From NCBI GenBank assembly GCA_965224245.1, contig OZ245046.1, forward strand, positions 2,400,001-2,464,000: DNA of 64,000 nt. The letters run 5' to 3'. Both the position numbers and the translations under genes were made by a program. Origin of the DNA: Candidatus Eiseniibacteriota bacterium. Its GTDB lineage: Bacteria; Eisenbacteria; RBG-16-71-46; CAZAMP01. Positions 2,402 to 27,495 of the stretch are shown one piece after another. The notes under the pieces were generated by a model. It was given only the letters and a program-made list of their open reading frames with translations. It had not been told where the DNA came from and did no database searches. Position 1 is the first letter of the stretch. The number at the start of each line of letters is the position of its first letter.

Positions 2402-5400
2402 CTAACGGATCAAGGCCAGCTTTCCGACCTCGGAGTCGGCTCTCCCCCCGGTCGACGCGACCCGGTAGACGTACAGGCCGGGCGCCACCGGCGTCCCGGA
2501 CTCGTTCAGGCCATCCCAGCGCACGAGGTTGTCGACGCCACCATAGACGGTGCCGTCCAGGCGGCGGACCTCGATCCCGGCGGCATCGTAGATCGTGATC
2601 GTCACGCGTGAGACGTCCATCGCCGGCCGGTAGTGGAACGACGTGCCGTCCGGACGCGCCGGATTCGGCTGGCAGTATACGTCGGCGAGCCCGCTGGCCG
2701 CATCGGGCACGTCGGACTCGCTGGCCGCCGTGACCGCGTTTCGCGTGGGTCCGCGACGGAACATGCCCCACTCGTCGCCGCGCGGGCGGTACGGCGCATC
2801 CAGGTTCCAGAGCACCGCGCGCGTCCACAGGACCTCGTCGCGCGATCCGCGTCCCACGTCGAGCGCGAAGACGTCGGTGCGAGCGTCCCCGTCGAAGTCG
2901 CCCACCACCGGGACGGTGCCCGAGCCGACCTGGAGCGGCCACCCGCGAAGCACGCGCGCGTGGGCGTCGTCCCCGCGCAACCCCACCACGAGCCCGTCGC
3001 CGAAGACCGGGATCACGTCGAGACGCCCGTCCCCGGTCACGTCGGCCGCGAGCGGCCCCCGATGCGGCGGCGACAGGTCGTAGTACGTGTCCTGCGGGAC
3101 GTCGAACGTCCGCGGCCAGCCGGCGTCGACCACGCCGTTCAGGTTGATCACGAAGGCCGCGCCGCTGGTGCCGATGGCCAGCACCTCGGCGAAGCCGTCC
3201 GAGTCGACGTCGGCGATCGACACCTCGCTCCCGATCGGACCGCCCACGAACACCGGCCACCCCGCGCGCGGCGAGAGGTGTGAGACGTCACCGTCGTGCC
3301 CGAGCTCCCACGCGAACACGGTGCCGTCCTCGGCCACGGCGACCACGTCGGGGGTGTCGTCGCCGTCCAGATCCCCCCACACCGGCGAGCCGAAGCGCCG
3401 ATCGGGCTCGGTGGGCGCGCGCTCGCGCTGGTCGGTGTCGAGGTCCAGATCCACGAGTAGCATGCCGCCCAGGAGTCCCGCCTGCACGACGACCGGGATG
3501 GTGGCTGCGCCGCCCTGCGTGACCGGCGCCCCGGCGATCCGCCCGACCACCGGGGCCCCGGCGACCGGCCCGGCGATGCGGTACTCGCGGCCGGCGGCCG
3601 CATCGAGATCCCAGCGCCACATCGCGCCCTCGGTCGAATCGGCGCCCGCATCGCGGGAGCCCACGATCAGCTCCAGCGCGGCGTCGTCGTCGACGTCGGC
3701 GAGCACACCCTCCACGCGTCCCAGCGAGTCGACGGCGCCGGCGGGTCGCCGGCGCAGCGCGGTGGCGGTCATCTCGAAGACCGAGATGCCGCCGCGCTCG
3801 CCGATCGTCACGATCGACTGGCCGCCGTCCCCCAGCACGTCACCGACGAGCGGGGATCCGGCCGGCGTGTCGCCGATGTCGCGGTCTCCCCCGATCGCGC
3901 GTCCGTCGGTGTCGAGGACGGTCAGGAGCCCGCTCTCGCCCAGCACCACGAACTCGCTCTCGCGGTCGCCGTCGAGATCGGCCGCCAGCGGATGCGCGCC
4001 GGAGATGGGCTGATCCAGCGTGACCGGAAAGCCGTCGGCGAGCGTGGCCGCGGCGCCGTCGGGCTCCACGAACTCGACCCGGAACGACTGCGTCTCCCCG
4101 GGAGGCCCGATGTCGCTGATGAGCACGCGCCCCGGCGCGCCGAACGAGCTCTCGGAGGAGGGGTTCGTCCAGGGTCCGAACTCGGTGGCGGTGCCTGGAC
4201 GGAACGCGTCGTCCGGGGACCCGAACGACAGGATCGTGTAGGCGTCGAACTCCAGATCCTGGACCCCGTCGGCCTCCTCGAGGTCGATGCCGAGGTGATG
4301 CGGGTCGGCGTTGACCAGGTTGTAGTCGAACGCGAACCGCACCACGGAGTCGTCGATGTGCCAGACGTACAGCCCCTCGGACTCGCGGTACGTGGCGGTG
4401 GGGCTCGTCGGCAAGAGGTTCGGGGTGAAGTAGTCGAACTCGGAGCCTGCGAACGTGTCGCCCCAGAAGTTGAACGAGACGTCGTCCTCGCTTCGACGCG
4501 CCCAGTCGAACGTCCGGTTGTCGTTGGGATCGGGTTGTCGGGCCTCGACCAGGAAGTACTCGTCGGCCGAGATCGGGATGCGGACCGCGAGCGTGTCGGT
4601 GGCCGCGGGGCGATCGGTCTCGATCGGGGTCAGCGTGACCGCGCGCCCGCCCGGCGGCGTGTCGGCGATCGTGACCGGATCGAGCCATCCCGCGTAGTAG
4701 CGCGACCACACGCATGGCTCGCCGGGGACGAAGCCGTTGCCGTTCCACGTGCCGGCGGCCATCAGGCAGAACGCCCCGACGCCCTGCGACGGATCCCCAG
4801 GCGTGGTGTCGTACAGATCGGGCCAGCCGATCATCACGTGACCGAGCTCGTGCGTGAACACGCCCATGAGCCCGAACCGCCACCCGTCCTGTACCTCGTT
4901 CTCGGGGAGGAGCGCGGCCCCGCGCACGTAGACGGTGTCGCCCTCGGCGGTCAGATCGTCGGTCGGGATCCCGGGCACTTCGTAGCCGAGCGAGTCGTTC
5001 AGCACGAACGAGAGCAGATCGCCCGGGAAGAACGCGGACCAGATCTGTGACTTGCTGTCCCGCGCCACGTCGGACTCCTGACCGGAGCCCGAGTGCACGA
5101 CCGCGAAGCCGTTGTAGTCACCGAAGTCCACGTCGGCGTCGGCGCCCGCGACGGCGTCCCAGATCAGCTTCGTGCCGCGTTCGGAGAAGAGATCGTCGTC
5201 TCCGTAGTACGCCATCGGGGCGGGAAGCTTGACCACCGCGTCGTGAACCGTGGCCTCCATCACGTGCTGGCCGAACGACACGTCCTCGTAGTACTGGCGC
5301 ACGTGCTCGAGGTGACGATCGAAGTAGGCCACCAGGAGCTCGTCCTCGGGGATCGGGCCCGCGCCCGTCGTGTCGATGGCCAGCGTGTCGAAGGGCACGT

Positions 5401-5713
5401 CGGCGAACTCGGCCAGCAGGAAGAGTACGCGCGAGGTGTCGGACGGCGCGCCGACCCGGTCGGTGTCGTGATCGAAGTAGCCGAGCGCCAGCTCGGGCGC
5501 CGGCTCGCGAAAGACGGGCCAGTCGGTCTTCTGGGGCACCGGCGGCGCCATGCAGAAGATCGGCCCGCCCACCGGCCCGGCGTGGACGGCCGGTCGAGGT
5601 TCGGGCGCGTCGCCGGCGCGCGGAAGAGGTGTGATCCGGTCCGTGGACGTCAACCAGCCCAGCGCCGAGAGCACGGCGAGCGCCGACGTCAGTAACGTGC
5701 GTCGAAGCATCAT
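2402..5713 (-). CDS. Secreted M6 (immune inhibitor A-like) metalloprotease with FG-GAP repeats and C-terminal FlgD-Ig domain
   Basis: HELGH..GWPDLYD, CLMAAGTWN and GIDLEEADG motifs; repeated D.DGDG; tail PNP..ITIYDAAG.EVRRL..WDGLNESG..VAPGLYVY. Confidence 0.85.
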   Translation of the reverse strand: MMLRRTLLTSALAVLSALGWLTSTDRITPLPRAGDAPEPRPAVHAGPVGGPIFCMAPPVPQKTDWPVFREPAPELALGYFDHDTDRVGAPSDTSRVLFLLAEFADVPFDTLAIDTTGAGPIPEDELLVAYFDRHLEHVRQYYEDVSFGQHVMEATVHDAVVKLPAPMAYYGDDDLFSERGTKLIWDAVAGADADVDFGDYNGFAVVHSGSGQESDVARDSKSQIWSAFFPGDLLSFVLNDSLGYEVPGIPTDDLTAEGDTVYVRGAALLPENEVQDGWRFGLMGVFTHELGHVMIGWPDLYDTTPGDPSQGVGAFCLMAAGTWNGNGFVPGEPCVWSRYYAGWLDPVTIADTPPGGRAVTLTPIETDRPAATDTLAVRIPISADEYFLVEARQPDPNDNRTFDWARRSEDDVSFNFWGDTFAGSEFDYFTPNLLPTSPTATYRESEGLYVWHIDDSVVRFAFDYNLVNADPHHLGIDLEEADGVQDLEFDAYTILSFGSPDDAFRPGTATEFGPWTNPSSESSFGAPGRVLISDIGPPGETQSFRVEFVEPDGAAATLADGFPVTLDQPISGAHPLAADLDGDRESEFVVLGESGLLTVLDTDGRAIGGDRDIGDTPAGSPLVGDVLGDGGQSIVTIGERGGISVFEMTATALRRRPAGAVDSLGRVEGVLADVDDDAALELIVGSRDAGADSTEGAMWRWDLDAAAGREYRIAGPVAGAPVVGRIAGAPVTQGGAATIPVVVQAGLLGGMLLVDLDLDTDQRERAPTEPDRRFGSPVWGDLDGDDTPDVVAVAEDGTVFAWELGHDGDVSHLSPRAGWPVFVGGPIGSEVSIADVDSDGFAEVLAIGTSGAAFVINLNGVVDAGWPRTFDVPQDTYYDLSPPHRGPLAADVTGDGRLDVIPVFGDGLVVGLRGDDAHARVLRGWPLQVGSGTVPVVGDFDGDARTDVFALDVGRGSRDEVLWTRAVLWNLDAPYRPRGDEWGMFRRGPTRNAVTAASESDVPDAASGLADVYCQPNPARPDGTSFHYRPAMDVSRVTITIYDAAGIEVRRLDGTVYGGVDNLVRWDGLNESGTPVAPGLYVYRVASTGGRADSEVGKLALIR

Positions 5714-5909: not shown

Positions 5910-7310
5910 TCAGCGACGGGACCGACCACCGGACGAGCGATCGCGCCCCGAGGACTTCGATCGCCCGCTGCGTCCGCGATCCCCGCTCTTGCGATCGTCC
6001 CGCCGCGGGGGCGTGGCCGACTTTCGCGGCTTGTCCCCCCGGGAGTTCCGGGGTCGATCGCCGACGTTTCGTGGACGATCGTCCCGCGACGGCTGCACGT
6101 CTCGACCGGAATCGTCGCGCTTGGGACGTGCTCCGCGATCCCGCTTGCCCCGCCCGGCATCCCGATCACGGTCGTCACGATCGCCGCGGTCCACGTCTCG
6201 TGCGCCGCGATCGCCGCGATCTCCCCGGTCGACGTTCCGGTCGCCCCGATCTCCCCGATCGGGCCGGGTTCCGCGGTCATCCCGGCCACGCGAGTCCAGA
6301 GCGCCGTCGCGATCGCGAACCGGCTTCGTGGTGCCCCGTACGTCGTGCGCGTCGGACACGTGGTCGCCGCGTGTCCACGAGGGATGGTCCTTGCGGTCCT
6401 TCAGATGATCGCGCTCCCTGGGCGACTTGCCTGCGAACGTCCGGATCAGACGATCCGGACGACCGTCCTCCCACCGATCCTTGGACGACCACTTGGTCTT
6501 GTAGGAGCGGTAGCGGTGCGGCGCGTTCGCGCGCTTCCAGTAGTAGAAGCGCGGCTGGCAGCGTGCCGGATAGAGCGCGTCGGTCCACCAGACGTCCACG
6601 CGCACGTCGAACACCCGGCACGCGTCCCGGTACGGGTCGTACCATCCGCCGTAATGACAGTCGTTGCACACGTAGCGCGGATAGTACCGGTGCGTGCGGA
6701 CGCCCCAGTACACGGTCCGGAAGCCCACCCGGTGCGGCGCGCACCCGCGGGGCAGAATCGAGGCCCGGAGCTCGGCGAACGCCAGGTACGGGTCGCCGGT
6801 GACGAACCCGAACTGCACGATGGGGCTGCGAGAGGCGCCGAGGTAGTACGGCCTGGTGCGGTGGCCGTGCGCGTAGAACCAGTCGGGAAAGTACGGGTCC
6901 AGCGGATAGGCGCACGCCAGCGCCTGCACGTACACCATGCCCTCCAGCGGTCCCACCTCGAGAAACGGCGCGTTGACCACGTACGACCGTCCGCCCCGGA
7001 GGTAGTGCGGGTCGTGCGGATGGTACGGGTAGATCAGATGCGCCATGCCGTCCACGTCGACGCCGTAGACGACGACGTACGAGTCGCGATGGGGACGGAC
7101 GGTCAGCTGGACCACGTCACCGGTGTCGTAGGTCGGATCCTCGCCGCCCGCGTCGACCCAGACGTCGACGCCGTACGCGTCGCCGTAGCCGCGGTCGTGA
7201 ACGGCATCCTGATAGCCGATGCCGGCCATCGCCGGCGCGGCGCCCGCCACGAGTGCGAGCGCGGCGGCCAGCGTGCCGGCCGCCCTCGAGAGCGTCGGAG
7301 TGCGCATCAT
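5910..7310 (-). CDS. Exported DUF4384-like protein with Tyr-rich middle and Arg/Asp low-complexity tail
   Basis: Signal peptide AMA; VDVWVD..TYDTGDVVQLTVR...SYVVVYGVDVDG..HLIYP; CNDCH; DRGDRGDR repeats. Confidence 0.7.
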   Translation of the reverse strand: MMRTPTLSRAAGTLAAALALVAGAAPAMAGIGYQDAVHDRGYGDAYGVDVWVDAGGEDPTYDTGDVVQLTVRPHRDSYVVVYGVDVDGMAHLIYPYHPHDPHYLRGGRSYVVNAPFLEVGPLEGMVYVQALACAYPLDPYFPDWFYAHGHRTRPYYLGASRSPIVQFGFVTGDPYLAFAELRASILPRGCAPHRVGFRTVYWGVRTHRYYPRYVCNDCHYGGWYDPYRDACRVFDVRVDVWWTDALYPARCQPRFYYWKRANAPHRYRSYKTKWSSKDRWEDGRPDRLIRTFAGKSPRERDHLKDRKDHPSWTRGDHVSDAHDVRGTTKPVRDRDGALDSRGRDDRGTRPDRGDRGDRNVDRGDRGDRGARDVDRGDRDDRDRDAGRGKRDRGARPKRDDSGRDVQPSRDDRPRNVGDRPRNSRGDKPRKSATPPRRDDRKSGDRGRSGRSKSSGRDRSSGGRSRR

Positions 7311-8128
7311 GATGCACCTCCTCCGAAGTCGCGCAGCGGCCGCTTGTGCGTGGCCCCGCTCTTGCGCAGCTCGGGATTGCCGCGATCGGTCTGGTAGCCC
7401 CAGTCCAGCTCGATGAAGTCCTCGTCCAGATCGACGACGCGGACCTTCGCGTAGTTGTTGTCGCGCGTCCAGACCACGTAGACGTGCCCCACGATCGCCT
7501 CCACGATCCCCGACGGGCTCCAGCCCTCGTCGGGCGCCCAGGTGATCGCGTCGAAGGACGCGTAGCCTGCATCCTGGATGTCGGTCGCGTAGTCGGGAAC
7601 GGCCAGGTAGCCGACACCGTCGATCCAGTCGAAGTAGACGTCGGCGCGCTCGTCGTCCCAGCCGACTCGCTGCTCGCGCGAGAAGTCGAACGCCGAGTCC
7701 TCGGGGTAGTCGCCGTCGGCCTCTTCCAGCTGAAGGCCGAACCCCTCGGGCCGCGGCGTGTCGTAGATGATGCGGTTGTTGAGGTCGCTCTCGTTGCCGG
7801 CGTAGTCGATGGCGGTGACTCCGTAGTAGTACGTGTCTCCGTTGTCGAGGTCGTCGTGCACGAAGTCGGCGTCCTCGGTGAACCCGAGCAGGTCGTACGG
7901 CCCGTGCGGCTCGCGACTCACGTAGACGCGATAGCCGTCCAGGTCGGGCTCCTGGTTCTCGATCCAGTCCAGATAGACGACCCGGTCACCGGTCGTCGAC
8001 GTCACACCGACCGGCGGCAGCGGCGCGCGGCGGTCGGACTCGTGATGGTGGTCGGTACCGGTGTGATTGATCTCGCAGCCGAGCGCGAGCACCGCACCCA
8101 CGAGTGTCAGATGGAGTCGCGTGTTCAT
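7307..8128 (-). CDS. Lipoprotein with fibronectin type III-like domain
   Basis: Lipobox ALGC; VYLDW..N.EPDLDGYRVY...YYYGVTAIDYAGNES; RBS AGGAGG. Confidence 0.75.
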   Translation of the reverse strand: MNTRLHLTLVGAVLALGCEINHTGTDHHHESDRRAPLPPVGVTSTTGDRVVYLDWIENQEPDLDGYRVYVSREPHGPYDLLGFTEDADFVHDDLDNGDTYYYGVTAIDYAGNESDLNNRIIYDTPRPEGFGLQLEEADGDYPEDSAFDFSREQRVGWDDERADVYFDWIDGVGYLAVPDYATDIQDAGYASFDAITWAPDEGWSPSGIVEAIVGHVYVVWTRDNNYAKVRVVDLDEDFIELDWGYQTDRGNPELRKSGATHKRPLRDFGGGAS

Positions 8129-8159
8129 CGGGGTGCCTCCTTTCGGGTTCGAAGAACGA

Positions 8160-8275
8160 AAGGATGCAGGGGCATCGTCGGCCTGCCTCCACCGTTGAAC
8201 GAAACCCTTACGCCATCACCGCCGAGGCGGCGATGGAGGGTGGGTAAGTGTTTCGCGAAATGCCCCTGCATCCTT
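8160..8275 (-). promoter_or_regulatory. Structured 5' leader closed by a perfect 16-bp inverted repeat
   Basis: AAGGATGCAGGGGCAT (8160-8175) / ATGCCCCTGCATCCTT (8260-8275) enclosing two nested stems. Confidence 0.6.
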
Positions 8276-8289
8276 GTGCCCGGGTGCAT

Positions 8290-8305
8290 TGCAGGGGGCA
8301 TGCCA
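8290..8305 (-). promoter_or_regulatory. sigma54 -24/-12 promoter P1
   Basis: TGGCATGCCCCCTGCA (GG-N10-GC), oriented toward the lipoprotein gene. Confidence 0.7.
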
Positions 8306-8564
8306 GTGGGGCGAGAGCGGACTTCTCAGGCTTGCAACTAACTATGTGCCAATCGATTGAACGAAACGGGACTGCTCCGGGGACCGCTCCGGGAGAGGTG
8401 GGTCGAGCCTGGATCCGTGACCGTCGCGCCTCGGTGTCGCACCGCCGCCACAGGCGTGCCTGCAACACACCCACCCGCCGATACGCGAGCCACTACCGTG
8501 GACGACGAGGACGCGGGGCGCGGGCCGCAGGGCGTTCGGGCGAAGGGCGAGGAGCACGGAGGGC

Positions 8565-8817
8565 AAAAAACAAGGGACCCGATCCGCGGCGGCCACAGCC
8601 TGGACATCCCCCATCTCGCTGGTCATAACCGCCTGGATCAGATCCCTCGCAAATCGTGCCGAGGTATGTCGTGTCTGCGCCGAAGAATTCGAACCGGCCG
8701 GCCGCAACGAACATCTGGACGCTCAATCCGTCGCTCGCCGCGTGTAATCGGGGCCTGATCAGCGTTGACCGGCCGGTCCGAAGTCCATCTTCGGAGGTTC
8801 CCAGCTCCACAGACGTT
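8565..8817 (-). ncRNA. Putative sigma54-dependent structured small RNA, ~250 nt
   Basis: Begins at the predicted +1 of promoter P2; two long stems whose mismatches are G-U pairs on the minus strand; ends in U6; no RBS-supported ORF. Confidence 0.55.
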
Positions 8818-8827
8818 CTCTGATCAT

Positions 8828-8843
8828 TGCATCCGGCATGCCA
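8828..8843 (-). promoter_or_regulatory. sigma54 -24/-12 promoter P2
   Basis: TGGCATGCCGGATGCA (GG-N10-GC); shares TGGCATGCC...TGCAATG with P1. Confidence 0.7.
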
Positions 8844-9076
8844 GGTGCGCCGATCGCGCCGAGACACATCGAACACAACGCTAACGCATTCGAAACGGGC
8901 ACGTTACACGTGGGTTTCATTCCGCTGCGAGGGGCTCGATCTCCGGCTCTTCCGGGCACGAATTCGCAAGGAAGTTTCCAGCCACATCTCGACGCCGGCA
9001 ACGTGCGCGTTTGCAGCGTCTTGGGTTGGAAAGATTCTTTAGAGGCGTATCAAGAGACTTGATAGCTCCAGGGGGG

Positions 9077-12000
9077 TCAGTCGATGGCGAACGTGCGGAC
9101 CTTGGCCAGCAGGGTGGGATACGAGATGGCCAGACGCCTCGCCGCGGCGCTCTTGTTCCCACGGCACTCGCGGAGCGCGTCCACGATCATCTGCCGCTCG
9201 AGACGCTGCACGGCCGATCGCATCGAGCCGTTCGTGGCGCCGTTCGCGACGCCGGCCGGCCCGACCAGCTCGGGCGGCAGGTGCGCGACACCGACCGGCT
9301 CTCCCTCGTCGGCCAGGACGAGCATCCGGCGGACAGCCTTCTCCAGCTCGCGTACGTTGCCCGGCCATGCGTAGTCGTGGAGCAGTCGCATCACGTCGGG
9401 CGACAGGCGCGGCACGTCTCGTGACATCTCGGCCGAGAACGTCGCCATGAAGTGGTCCACGAGAGCGTCGATGTCCTGGCGCCGCTCTCGAAGCGGCGGG
9501 ATCACGATGGAGATGTCGTTGAGCCGGTAGTAGAGATCCTCCAGGAACGCGTTCTCCGCGATCAGCGTCTTCAGGTTGGCGTTCGTGGCGGACACGATCC
9601 GCACGTCGACGCGCTTCCAGCGCGTGGCCCCGACCGGTCGGATCTCGTGGTGATCGAGCACGTGCAAGAGCTTGGCCTGCACCGCGCGCGTCGTCTTGTC
9701 CACCTCGTCTAGGAACACGGTCCCGCCTTCGGCCTCTTCGAAGAGCCCGCGCTTCTCGCGTATCGCACCGGTGAACGCGCCCGCCATGTGCCCGAACAGC
9801 TCGCTCTCCAGGAGATGCTCGGGTATCGCGGCGCAGCTGATCGGTACGAACGGGGCCTCTCTTCGCCTGCCCGTATCGTGCACCGCGCGCGCGATCAGGC
9901 CCTTGCCGGTGCCGGTCTCGCCGCGGACGAGCACGCTCGCCGGGCTGTCGGACACCTTGCGTACGGTCTGGAGCAGCGCCTCGAACGCCGGGCTGGCCGA
10001 CACGATCGGCCGCGTGAGGCGGCTCGCGTCGATGCCGCTCTCCAGCCGGGCGCGCTCGGAGAGCATCTGCGTGCGTTCGAGCGCCAGCGCCGAGATCGAC
10101 GCCAGCTCGGCCAGGAGCGCGATCAGCTTCAGATCGGCCTGTCGGTAGGCGCCCACCACGTGCTGCGCGCGGCGGTCCACGTAGAGGAGCCCCCAGATGT
10201 CCTGGGGCAGGCACAGCGGCGCGATCGCCAGGCCGGACACGTCCTCGACGTCCCCAACGTCGGCGTCGCCGGGAGCGCGGATCGCCGGGTACCCCGACGC
10301 CATCGACGCGGCGACCGCCGGCTGGATGCGCCCGAGCAGCTCGCTGGCCTGCGCGGCGGTCGTCCCGATCGCACCCACCACCGTCAGGTCCTCGGTGGTC
10401 GGCCCCTGAGCCAGAAACGCGCGATCGGAGCTGGTGCGGCGAAGCACCATTCGCAGGAGGGCATCGACGGCGCTCTCCGGGCTTTCGGACGTCTTCAGGA
10501 GCCGATGGAGCTCGCGCGTCGGGCTGAGGATGTCCGAGCCCTCGAGCGACGTCCGCGCGCGCTGGTCGAGCCGAGCCTTCAGACGCATCTGCTCCTCGAG
10601 CAGCGGGCTCTCCTCTGAGGCCTCGACGTATCGTGCGGCCGACCGGAGGAGGTTCTCGGCATCGTCGAGGGGACCGGTCCGGATGCGGTCCTCGACCGCC
10701 GCCAGCGCCACCTCGGCGAGGTGTCCGGGGACGTCGAGCGTCTCGAAGATCGCGCGCGCCTCCGTCAGGTGATGCTGGATCTCCGGATGAGCGTCGGTCG
10801 ACTCGCGGGCCACGTCGAGGCACACGCGCGCCATCGACAGGTGCGTGCGGCCGACCTCATACCGGGCGCCGAGCTTGCGGAACGTCTCGAGAACCGCGCC
10901 CAGCATCGCGTGGCCGTCCTCGCAACGTCCCGCGCGGGCCCGGCACAGACCCAGCACGCGCCGGGCGGCGGCCGCCTCGGTCAGGTCTCCGAGGCTCTCG
11001 GCGATCTCGATCGTGCGCTCGGCCGTCTCGGTGGCCGCGTCCAGATCCCCCAGTGCGAAGTGGGCTTCGGCCAGGCGCCGGCCGATCTCCGAGACAAGAT
11101 CGCCCGCCGGAGCCAGCTCTCGAGCGTCGGCGAGCGCTACGAGCAGCCGATCACGCCCGCGCTCGGGCTGGCCGGTGGCCACCTCGAGCTCGCCGCGGAA
11201 CTCTTCGACGAGGATGCGCTCGCGCGTGTAGCCGTTGGCCTCGGCGATCGCGTCCGCCTCCTCCAGGGTGGCGCGGGCGGCGCCGAACCGCCGCGACCGC
11301 ATGTCGAGGACGCCACGCGCGATCAGCGACTTGACCAGTCGACCGCGATGATCGATCTCGCGCGCGATCTGCGTGGCGCGCTCGAGCTGGCGCCGCGCCT
11401 CGGGCCAGTCTCCCAGACGCGAGTGAATGATGCCGAGATTGAGGCAGATCGAGGCCTTTCGCCCGTAGTCGCCCACGTCCTCGAGTATGTCGAGCGCACG
11501 GTGCAGGAACGATAGGGCATCGCGAAGGTGGTTCGACTGCTTCCGATTGAGTCCGAGGTTGTTGTACGCGTGCGCGATACCGCGGCGATCTCCGACCCGC
11601 TCGTACAGACCCAGCGCCAGATCGAACGACTGCTCGGCATCGCCGGTTCGCCCCTGTCGCTCGAGGGCGTGACCGATCGCCAGGTAGAGTCGCGCCTGGA
11701 ATCGCACGACCTCGGAGCTGGTCGTCTCCCGCAGGAGACTGAGCGCCTCGCGTGCCGCGTCGATGGCCGCCTGGTACTGGCCCGACATGGATCCCACGAT
11801 GGCATGGCGGCCGATGATGCGGGCACGGGTGACGTCGTCTGGATGAGGGCCGGCGAAGGCCTCGGCCTCCGCGATCGCGGCGCGCGCCATCCCGAGCTCG
11901 CCCCGGGAGGCGTGGCAATCGACGATGCGCAGCACGACGTCGACGCCGTCGGGGTTCGGGCCCTCGGGGGCGCCCAGCGGCTCGCGAGCGGCCAGGTAGT

Positions 12001-12145
12001 GGCCCAGCGCCTCGCCGTGATTGTCGGCGGACCGGTGGAGATCACCCAGACGCAGGAGGTGATCGAACGTGCTGGGGTCGACGGCACGCTCGCGCGTCGC
12101 TCCCTCGCCCGCCGCTTCGGTTGGGAAACCCCTCCCGACATCCAT
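9077..12145 (-). CDS. sigma54 enhancer-binding protein with long N-terminal TPR array, GAF-like domain, AAA+ and Fis-type HTH
   Basis: TPR repeats (AYNNLG, ICLNLG); GETGTGK, ESELFGH..GAFTGA, VFLDE, WPGNVRELE; GNKSAAARRLAIS; no receiver domain. Confidence 0.9.
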   Translation of the reverse strand: MDVGRGFPTEAAGEGATRERAVDPSTFDHLLRLGDLHRSADNHGEALGHYLAAREPLGAPEGPNPDGVDVVLRIVDCHASRGELGMARAAIAEAEAFAGPHPDDVTRARIIGRHAIVGSMSGQYQAAIDAAREALSLLRETTSSEVVRFQARLYLAIGHALERQGRTGDAEQSFDLALGLYERVGDRRGIAHAYNNLGLNRKQSNHLRDALSFLHRALDILEDVGDYGRKASICLNLGIIHSRLGDWPEARRQLERATQIAREIDHRGRLVKSLIARGVLDMRSRRFGAARATLEEADAIAEANGYTRERILVEEFRGELEVATGQPERGRDRLLVALADARELAPAGDLVSEIGRRLAEAHFALGDLDAATETAERTIEIAESLGDLTEAAAARRVLGLCRARAGRCEDGHAMLGAVLETFRKLGARYEVGRTHLSMARVCLDVARESTDAHPEIQHHLTEARAIFETLDVPGHLAEVALAAVEDRIRTGPLDDAENLLRSAARYVEASEESPLLEEQMRLKARLDQRARTSLEGSDILSPTRELHRLLKTSESPESAVDALLRMVLRRTSSDRAFLAQGPTTEDLTVVGAIGTTAAQASELLGRIQPAVAASMASGYPAIRAPGDADVGDVEDVSGLAIAPLCLPQDIWGLLYVDRRAQHVVGAYRQADLKLIALLAELASISALALERTQMLSERARLESGIDASRLTRPIVSASPAFEALLQTVRKVSDSPASVLVRGETGTGKGLIARAVHDTGRRREAPFVPISCAAIPEHLLESELFGHMAGAFTGAIREKRGLFEEAEGGTVFLDEVDKTTRAVQAKLLHVLDHHEIRPVGATRWKRVDVRIVSATNANLKTLIAENAFLEDLYYRLNDISIVIPPLRERRQDIDALVDHFMATFSAEMSRDVPRLSPDVMRLLHDYAWPGNVRELEKAVRRMLVLADEGEPVGVAHLPPELVGPAGVANGATNGSMRSAVQRLERQMIVDALRECRGNKSAAARRLAISYPTLLAKVRTFAID

Positions 12146-27420: not shown

Positions 27421-27495
<75 letters not shown>

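Follow-up and report, generated by a model that had tools for sequence, protein, structure and literature searches.

The RNA locus and its predicted fold

We analysed a stretch of 64,000 nucleotides (nt) from a Candidatus Eisenbacteria genome (contig OZ245046.1, positions 2,400,001 to 2,464,000; hereafter the window), in which a preliminary description had proposed a structured RNA transcribed from a sigma-54 promoter just downstream of an activator gene. The locus very probably holds a real, conserved, sigma-54-promoted RNA gene, and its predicted product, single-copy and highly structured, is judged from sequence to be a previously undescribed RNA family of this phylum. In the window its elements are the following.

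8828-8843, minus strand: predicted sigma-54 promoter P1, TGGCAT-N6-TGCA (TGGCATGCCGGATGCA), found by pattern match and with equivalents in homologues
about 8817-8562, minus strand: putative non-coding RNA, short form, about 255 nt, with ends predicted from promoter, folds and homology
8793-8808, minus strand: 5' hairpin H1, GGAG / 8-nt G-rich loop / CUCC, from the alignment with homologues
8688-8782, minus strand: domain 1 rod, a 15-base-pair (bp) outer helix plus inner hairpins, from the minimum free energy (MFE) fold and homologues
8573-8647, minus strand: domain 2, made of outer helix Pa, inner helix Pb, a 3-bp helix and the 7-nt loop GGGAUGU, from covariance model R1
8596-8613, minus strand: 18-nt core TGGGGGATGTCCAGGCTG inside domain 2, identical in the first-found homologues
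8565-8570, minus strand: tract of six U (U6), predicted intrinsic terminator directly 3' of the domain 2 stem, from sequence and fold

P1 (8843-8828, minus strand) carries the GG of the −24 element and the GC of the −12 element at the canonical 12-nt spacing, which agrees with the promoter and the +1 near 8817 first proposed. The pattern TGGCAYN6TGCW occurs twice in the window (8843-8828 and 8305-8290) against 0.25 expected, a count reached by 3 of 100 shuffled sequences, and the genome encodes rpoN (Sigma54_DBD match, 220 bits). A simple promoter and terminator scan detected no sigma-70 site. The 5' end at about 8817 was set by rule from the position of P1, and the 3' end from the last hairpin and U6. 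The G+C-rich outer stem of domain 2 followed by U6 (8570-8565) has the build of an intrinsic terminator, and the two closest homologues have U-runs at the equivalent position; the simple scanner overlooked this terminator because the enclosed loop is larger than its limit.

We then compared the folding of the two strands. The minus strand of 8820-8560 gave an MFE of −123 kcal/mol (z-score −3.77 against dinucleotide shuffles, none of 200 being as good), and the plus strand of the same region −97.7 kcal/mol (z −1.39, 17 of 200 shuffles as good). This asymmetry agrees with the earlier remark that nearly all stem mismatches are G-U on the minus strand. The 15-bp helix claimed for domain 1 was recovered in the MFE fold (8782 pairs with 8688, 8781 with 8689). 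The outer 7-bp helix that had been claimed around it (8794-8788 with 8686-8680) is also in the MFE fold; however, it is not evidently conserved, and it competes with the conserved 5' hairpin (8808-8793). That hairpin is a local variant of the phylum-wide H1 (GGAGG-GGGGA-CCUCC) and is not matched by the exact H1 pattern. The domain 1 loop GGCCCCGAU (8755-8747) is common to the homologues, and domain 1 is the counterpart of the P3 domain of the long forms described below; in the 14-bp core of the rod, comparison with the sister genus by eye showed three double changes and one change from G-U to A-U. The outer stem, inner stem and U6 first described for domain 2 are all present in the fold, helix Pa serving as terminator stem too, and covariance model R1 matched 8647-8573 with 40.4 bits (E 1.3e-8). 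The additional hairpin UCCGAAG-AUGGA-CUUCGGA does exist in the window; it is genome-specific and the two closest homologues lack it.

No known RNA family accounted for the locus. With Rfam 15 at gathering thresholds the sole match in the whole window was a tRNA gene (27421-27492, plus strand), and a scan of 8200-9200 with E up to 10 gave no match, including to 6S RNA, transfer-messenger RNA, RNase P and signal recognition particle RNA, so the absence of motifs of the last three, noted at the outset, was borne out. In 20 homologous loci scanned with E up to 1, only ncS01 and Leu_leader appeared, below threshold, and no family reached its threshold. RF02865 (ncS01, Burkholderia small RNA 1), a hairpin followed by a terminator hairpin, was the best Rfam score on two homologues; we rejected membership, as both scores (37.6 and 32.3 bits) fall short of the gathering score, 58, the likeness is that of a generic hairpin and terminator, and the window itself has no match.

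The possibility of a protein-coding region was examined on the 39 long forms. Of the 10312 internal indels between pairs of sequences, just 1819 (17.6%) were multiples of 3, and column variability had no three-base period. The ATG within the core is not conserved, being TTG or CTG in other genomes, with a stop codon next to it in some, and none of the open reading frames (ORFs) overlapping the RNA, including the 8493-8876 frame, had a Pfam match. By these measures the region is predicted not to code for protein.

Two sediment metatranscriptome runs (X1 and X2) contain small shares of the stretch; a further run of unrecorded kind, X3, contains all of it in identical form and may be where the assembly came from. 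In X1 a 196-nt contig lies wholly on 8608-8802; it departs from the window at 6 positions and has 1 insertion. Three of these differences are in predicted stems and leave the pairing intact (two U-A to U-G, one G-U to A-U), and the others are in loops. A 165-nt contig of the same run lies on 8046-8210 and covers the leader downstream of the second promoter (P2, see below) and the start of the lipoprotein gene. X1 gave no contig on 8229-8604 or 8840-9300, an absence that with contigs proves nothing, and X2 gave none on the stretch. Both contigs have a depth of about 3, and we take the 196-nt one as no more than a hint that the RNA is expressed.

Conservation, covariation and forms of the RNA

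Candidatus Eisenbacteria are known only from metagenome-assembled genomes; all genomes compared here are metagenome bins, and absence from an incomplete bin proves little. Families of the phylum are designated f (the window belongs to f1), genomes G and loci L. A search at the DNA level in 41 related genomes located the RNA in a sister genus (G001) and in a genome of another family (G004). Both have in common with the window a core of 24 identical bases within domain 2 and keep its order of sigma-54 promoter, G-rich 5' hairpin, long rod, domain 2 and U-run; the sequence of the rod differs, yet its pairing is kept. One further BLAST match (L005; G021:C14, about 1480-1530) was discarded as a chance likeness, since it lies in a coding region, by eye that of release factor 2; it has 28 of 30 bases of the RNA core region in the same sense (E 7e-4).

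The phylum was then searched in three ways. The core with up to 3 mismatches was found in 43 of 206 genomes, against 2 matches for a reversed control; 9 of the 46 core-pattern places were judged to be chance, eight upon inspection (L015, L017, L030, L070, L074, L079, L080 and L081) and one without (G006:C88). A domain 2 covariance model, built from 22 sequences and used with strict filters, gave exactly one match per genome in 70 of 151 genomes: 56/60 in f9, 6/6 in f17, 2/2 in f14, 3/7 in f7, 1/1 in f3 and, in f1, 1/1 for the sister genus, the window's own genome being matched as well. Under these filters there was no match in f8, f11, f13, f15, f16 or f18, although three f16 genomes were found by the core pattern. 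The exact H1 pattern was present in 174 of 206 genomes, nearly always in one copy, against 11 control matches; because of this distribution we consider the locus close to universal in the phylum, with H1 as its most widespread predicted element. Pattern matches outside the phylum (Myxococcales, Chloroflexota, Anaerolineae, Rhodococcus and others) had no P1, H1 or P2 and were set aside as chance or coding sequence; promoter and H1 were lacking in 11 of the 11 inspected. One unpublished genome, G083, is counted in the core-pattern, domain 2 model, CsrA, lipoprotein and H1 tallies and supplies one row each of alignments A2 and A5; the statements on f17 come partly from it (L026), and locus L025 of G082 has the same features.

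Covariation was present both in domain 2 and in the long forms. The domain 2 alignment comprised 48 rows from 5 families fitted to the model (E up to 1e-6), leaving out the weak sense rows L013, L014, L016, L020, L021 and L083 as well as 24 opposite-strand matches. In it 90.0% of cells were paired, against at most 46.6% when the structure was slid, and double changes were found in 15 of 27 pairs, amounting to 106 cells against 37.3 in shuffled alignments; none of 500 shuffles reached the observed value. Fitting to a model favours structure, a bias that does not apply to the MAFFT alignment of 39 full-length RNAs from f9. With that alignment and RNAalifold, 96.8% of cells were paired (at most 46.9% slid), and double changes occurred in 17 of 57 pairs (110 cells against 29.9 shuffled), a value again reached by 0 of 500 shuffles, although such controls overstate significance because related genomes are not independent. 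The double changes were in H2, in Pa and Pb and, within P3, in the inner helices; the outer helix of P3 and H1 are nearly invariant and so uninformative in this respect. A mixed-family MAFFT alignment of domain 2 with RNAalifold gave a poor consensus through misalignment and was replaced by the model-based one.

The RNA takes several forms, whose length across families ranges from about 150 to about 650 nt, the middle being highly variable in length and the ends kept. The f9 long forms (about 430-480 nt) consist, in order, of H1 (GGAGG / GGGGA / CCUCC), a variable hairpin H2, P3, P4, domain 2, P6 and a strong terminator; their P3 domain is a nearly invariant 14-bp helix around covarying helices and a GGGUACGAGCCCC hairpin. 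In f17 the forms are longer than in f9, with P1 476-553 nt upstream of the core (two loci, one from G083). Short forms of about 210-260 nt, found in f1 (window), f4 and f16, have H1, a P3-like rod with a GCCCCG loop and domain 2, whose outer stem is also the terminator stem. The size of about 250 nt first proposed thus fits the window, with the refinement that it is the short form of a family reaching about 450-650 nt elsewhere.

In six loci of five families, f8 (L117, L121), f15 (L118), f11 (L119), f13 (L120) and f12 (L122), the domain 2 model had no match, and a promoter-like site followed by H1 or an H1-like hairpin stood upstream of the lipoprotein gene. Four of the six have a strict P1, whereas in f15 and f12 a TGGCA promoter-like site just upstream of H1 was recognised by eye; the loop of the f11 H1-like hairpin has no GGA. 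The two f8 loci have a shorter and different RNA body of roughly 150 nt, then a terminator.

The arrangement in f7 is different again: activator gene, P1, H1, about 170 nt, an AAA+ ORF, domain 2 core, a further ORF, P2 and lipoprotein gene. The AAA+ ORF (PF00004) has about 490 codons from stop to stop (L123, G070, 3634-5700; L124, G021, 3660-5700), and an mRNA appears here to have H1 as its 5' untranslated region and domain 2 as its 3' one. Two RNA modules with a protein gene enclosed between them would be an unusual natural experiment on the modularity of an RNA.

Regulatory setting and possible roles of the RNA

The genes and sites on either side of the RNA bear on its regulation.

9077-12145, minus strand: predicted sigma-54 enhancer-binding protein (activator) gene, 1022 amino acids (aa), Pfam matches to Sigma54_activat (1.1e-62), TPR_12, AAA_lid_14 and HTH_8
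9048-9064, no strand assigned: AT-rich perfect palindrome TATCAAG-N3-CTTGATA, candidate activator site (upstream activating sequence); seen in the sequence, its function putative
8290-8305, minus strand: second predicted sigma-54 promoter P2, TGGCAT-N6-TGCA, found by pattern match
7307-8128, minus strand: lipoprotein gene, 273 aa, with lipobox, Fn3-like N-terminal part and conserved C-terminal domain, from Pfam and alignment A8
5910-7310, minus strand: DUF4384 gene, second of the P2 operon, from Pfam

The activator consists of TPR repeats, a sigma-54 AAA+ domain, an AAA lid and a Fis-type helix-turn-helix (HTH), and the Pfam scan found no receiver domain; its f9 orthologue is made of TPR, GAF, AAA+ and HTH. 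Its gene ends 234 nt upstream of P1. In 18 of 22 scanned loci a sigma-54 activator gene (AAA+, lid, HTH_8) lies directly upstream on the same strand, and in f7 it lies upstream of H1. The unit of promoter, RNA and terminator first described downstream of the activator gene is therefore not peculiar to the window and recurs beside the orthologous activator across the phylum.

The palindrome at 9048-9064 stands just past the activator stop codon, about 220 nt upstream of P1, and is the only match to TCAAGNNNCTTGA (up to 1 mismatch) in the window; a weaker AAAG-N3-CTTT repeat is found at about 9043-9027. Palindromes of this kind in homologous loci (TCAAG-N3-CTTGA or GAAAG-N3-CTTTC) lie between the activator stop codon and P1, where their distances from the P1 start are constant (about −215, −189 and −128). 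We regard them as candidate binding sites of the activator. Their presence and the position of the gene, together with the precedents of Pxr beside nla19 and crcZ beside cbrB, suggest that the adjacent activator drives P1.

Downstream of the RNA, a canonical P2 was found in 19 of 27 loci, with one additional CGGCAC variant, and P2 is further downstream in f7. The lipoprotein family is present in 200 of 206 genomes, often in several copies, with 39-59% identity across families; its C-terminal domain (TDIQDAGY ... GWSP ... DWAYQ) corresponds to no Pfam family. The order lipoprotein gene then DUF4384 gene is also seen in f9.

From these elements we propose the following scheme. The activator would bind the AT-rich palindromes upstream of P1 and switch on the RNA, probably together with the operon, in which P2 would drive the Fn3-like lipoprotein gene and then the DUF4384 gene. 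Sigma-54 RNA polymerase would start at about 8817, and the transcript would fold into the G-rich hairpin H1, the long rod of domain 1 and the three-helix domain 2, whose outer stem with U6 would end transcription in the window genome to give about 255 nt. The RNA would then act in trans as a regulator, binding or sequestering a protein through two invariant G-rich loops (that of H1 and the GGGAUGU of domain 2) and not through an antisense seed. We hold this whole scheme tentatively, with a little less than even confidence.

Protein binding is favoured by the large and ornate build of the RNA and by the location of its most conserved letters, which are in and around the two G-rich loops and stay constant though the pairing partner varies; the sequence of the 18-nt core likewise stays the same at paired positions whose opposite strand varies. 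It is also favoured over seed pairing because Hfq was not found in the window genome (97% complete) and the antisense searches gave no signal. Allowing up to 3 mismatches, the genome has 9 sites complementary to the core against 6 for a reversed control, which is no enrichment. In duplex prediction with the RNA, the cognate P2 leader showed no advantage over shuffled leaders (mean z +0.14 over the scored loci).

Several observations weigh against this scheme. Five families (f8, f11, f12, f13 and f15) keep P1 or a promoter-like site and H1 without the domain 2 core, meaning that domain 2 is not essential to the role of the locus. With the f7 modules as parts of an mRNA, a role in cis, in stability or translation control, fits as well as one in trans. 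Position and palindromes are all that connects the activator with P1, and by strict criteria the palindromes are present in only 27 of 50 loci. The antisense negatives are weak, as short seeds escape such searches. Finally, the RNA-library evidence comes down to one low-depth contig (2.9), strandless and without ends, for which DNA carry-over is possible.

The RNA is most likely, by analogy, an activator-adjacent sigma-54-dependent regulatory RNA of the kind of Pxr or CrcZ: like these, it is encoded beside an activator gene and has its own predicted sigma-54 promoter and terminator. This would be a functional kind and not one homologous family, as neither the window nor the 20 homologous loci reached the Rfam 15 threshold of any described family. 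CrcZ is a sigma-54-dependent RNA of a few hundred nt that acts by sequestering Hfq/Crc. The Eisenbacteria RNA differs from CrcZ and CrcY in that its genome has no detectable Hfq, no repeated A-rich motif was seen in it, its conserved elements are two G-rich hairpin loops, and it has no Rfam match. In every Pseudomonas genome analysed, crcZ is found downstream of cbrB, the gene of a sigma-54 activator (PMC5113210).

Pxr of Myxococcus xanthus and other myxobacteria is encoded directly downstream of the sigma-54 regulator gene nla19 and has its own sigma-54 promoter (PMC5568312), and shares with the present RNA the position beside the activator, the promoter and the build of several stem-loops. 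In contrast, Pxr has about 108 nt and three stem-loops, against 150-650 nt and many conserved helices here. The two also come from different phyla, the Eisenbacteria RNA has no Rfam match, and its locus adds a second sigma-54 promoter with a lipoprotein operon and an activator of the TPR/GAF type in which no receiver domain was found. In Desulfovibrio vulgaris the reconstructed sigma-54 regulome includes 4 non-coding RNAs under enhancer-binding proteins (PMC4641369); these are other organisms, and the likeness drawn here is limited to sigma-54 control. The openly accessible literature, subscription journals being outside the scope of the search, returned nothing on regulatory RNAs or sigma54 in Eisenbacteria.

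An RNA, or at least an H1, that is single-copy, nearly universal, provided with a clear predicted on-switch (sigma-54 and a TPR/GAF activator) and linked to a cell-surface protein operon that is itself nearly universal would give access to signal transduction, and to the biology of the envelope, in an uncultured phylum. It would also make an Rfam-grade new family with strong covariation, an unusual size range and a modular build, the long forms being candidates for the small set of large structured bacterial RNAs of uncharacterised biochemistry.

Among the other explanations, the best placed, though unlikely, is a small RNA that works by base pairing, with an antisense seed for target mRNAs in the invariant 18-nt core or in some other single-stranded stretch that is conserved. 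RNAs of the Qrr or Pxr type are thought to control the translation or stability of their targets. The length and invariance of TGGGGGATGTCCAGGCTG do resemble the conservation typical of seed regions, and sigma-54-dependent small RNAs beside their regulators are known (PMC5568312). However, the core is mostly within covarying helices, five families keep the locus without it, and seed-type small RNAs seldom reach 250-650 nt or have so many conserved helices; the lack of a detectable Hfq, the 9 sites against 6 and the z of +0.14 given above speak against this explanation too.

Ranking below it, and quite doubtful even when its two variants are taken jointly, is a role in cis. H1 and domain 2 could be end modules that stabilise, or control the translation of, the sequence between them, or the unit could be a leader, attenuator or insulator that sets P1 read-through into the lipoprotein operon. 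The f7 AAA+ gene of about 490 codons between H1 and domain 2 in a P1 unit, the great variation in length of the RNA middle between kept ends, and the terminator stem forming part of domain 2 in the window are all consistent with such a role. Against it, the operon in most families has its own conserved sigma-54 promoter past the terminator, so that a leader would not be needed for its expression. In addition, the spacer from U6 to P2 (8570-8300, about 255 nt) has no fold signal (z +0.38), and no alternative antiterminator pairing was seen. In the long forms, conservation and covariation of the middle domains make these more than a passive spacer.

An alternative that we consider improbable is a new class of large ornate RNA, reaching about 450-650 nt in f9 and f17, with H1 and the 3' domain as a functional ribonucleoprotein or catalytic core, or with a function in sigma-54 feedback. 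If true, feedback could pass for example through binding of the TPR/GAF activator or of the sigma-54 holoenzyme, and the RNA body would have the modularity to accommodate an entire protein gene (the f7 case), which is beyond an ordinary small-RNA regulator.

That the RNA titrates CsrA/RsmA through GGA in hairpin loops, a link raised tentatively in the preliminary description, is very improbable. GGA is present in both conserved loops and in the extra AUGGA loop of the window, and CsrA is encoded in the window genome and in 179 of 206 phylum genomes. Yet none of the 8 f7 genomes, one of them 100% complete, encodes CsrA, while 8/8 have H1 and f7 keeps the domain 2 core in 4/8 by pattern and 3/7 by model. 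GGA is not enriched in the window RNA (8 against 5.3 +/- 2.0 expected) nor in 40 RNAs taken together (mean z 0.70, 0/40 above z 2), and the AUGGA hairpin is not conserved. The partner in the proposed protein-binding scheme is thus probably not CsrA.

Least credible of all is that there is no RNA gene and that what is conserved is regulatory sites in the DNA or a gene for a small protein, for instance the 8493-8876 frame: long ORFs do cross the region on both strands, as G+C-rich DNA predicts, and activator sites and promoters are close by, but the compensatory changes, the strand-asymmetric fold, indels that ignore the frame, the unconserved start codon and the lack of Pfam matches for the overlapping ORFs all speak against it.

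Other elements around the locus

Two further features belong to the region downstream of P2.

8167-8273, minus strand: 5' leader of the lipoprotein mRNA, conserved in the sister genus (79% identity), from the DNA search
2402-5713, minus strand: M6 (immune inhibitor A-like) peptidase gene, secreted-type, with FG-GAP repeats and a C-terminal FlgD-Ig-like domain, from Pfam

The lipoprotein leader is about 160 nt long in the window and about 50-60 nt in f9. It contains long-range self-complementary segments (GGAUGCAGGGGCAU ... AUGCCCCUGCAUCC) and may be a second structured regulatory element. The M6-like peptidase gene follows the DUF4384 gene in the window, an arrangement not seen in the f9 genome examined, and may belong to the same sigma-54 operon in the window genome.

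In the spacer between U6 and P2, a 14-nt block (TGTTGCAGGCACGC, 8454-8467, minus strand) is identical in the sister genus and loosely resembles the P6 loop of the long forms. Possible explanations are a P6 remnant, a segment of a read-through isoform, or a DNA site that serves P2.

Upstream of P1, the f9 regions (e.g. L027) have a G+C-rich hairpin about 150-190 nt before P1, between two palindrome positions, with a covarying stem (GCCCCGGAC...GUCCGGGGC or similar) and a conserved loop (ACTTAGCC or GAGTTCGCC). This hairpin could be the terminator of the activator gene, or another RNA or DNA element.

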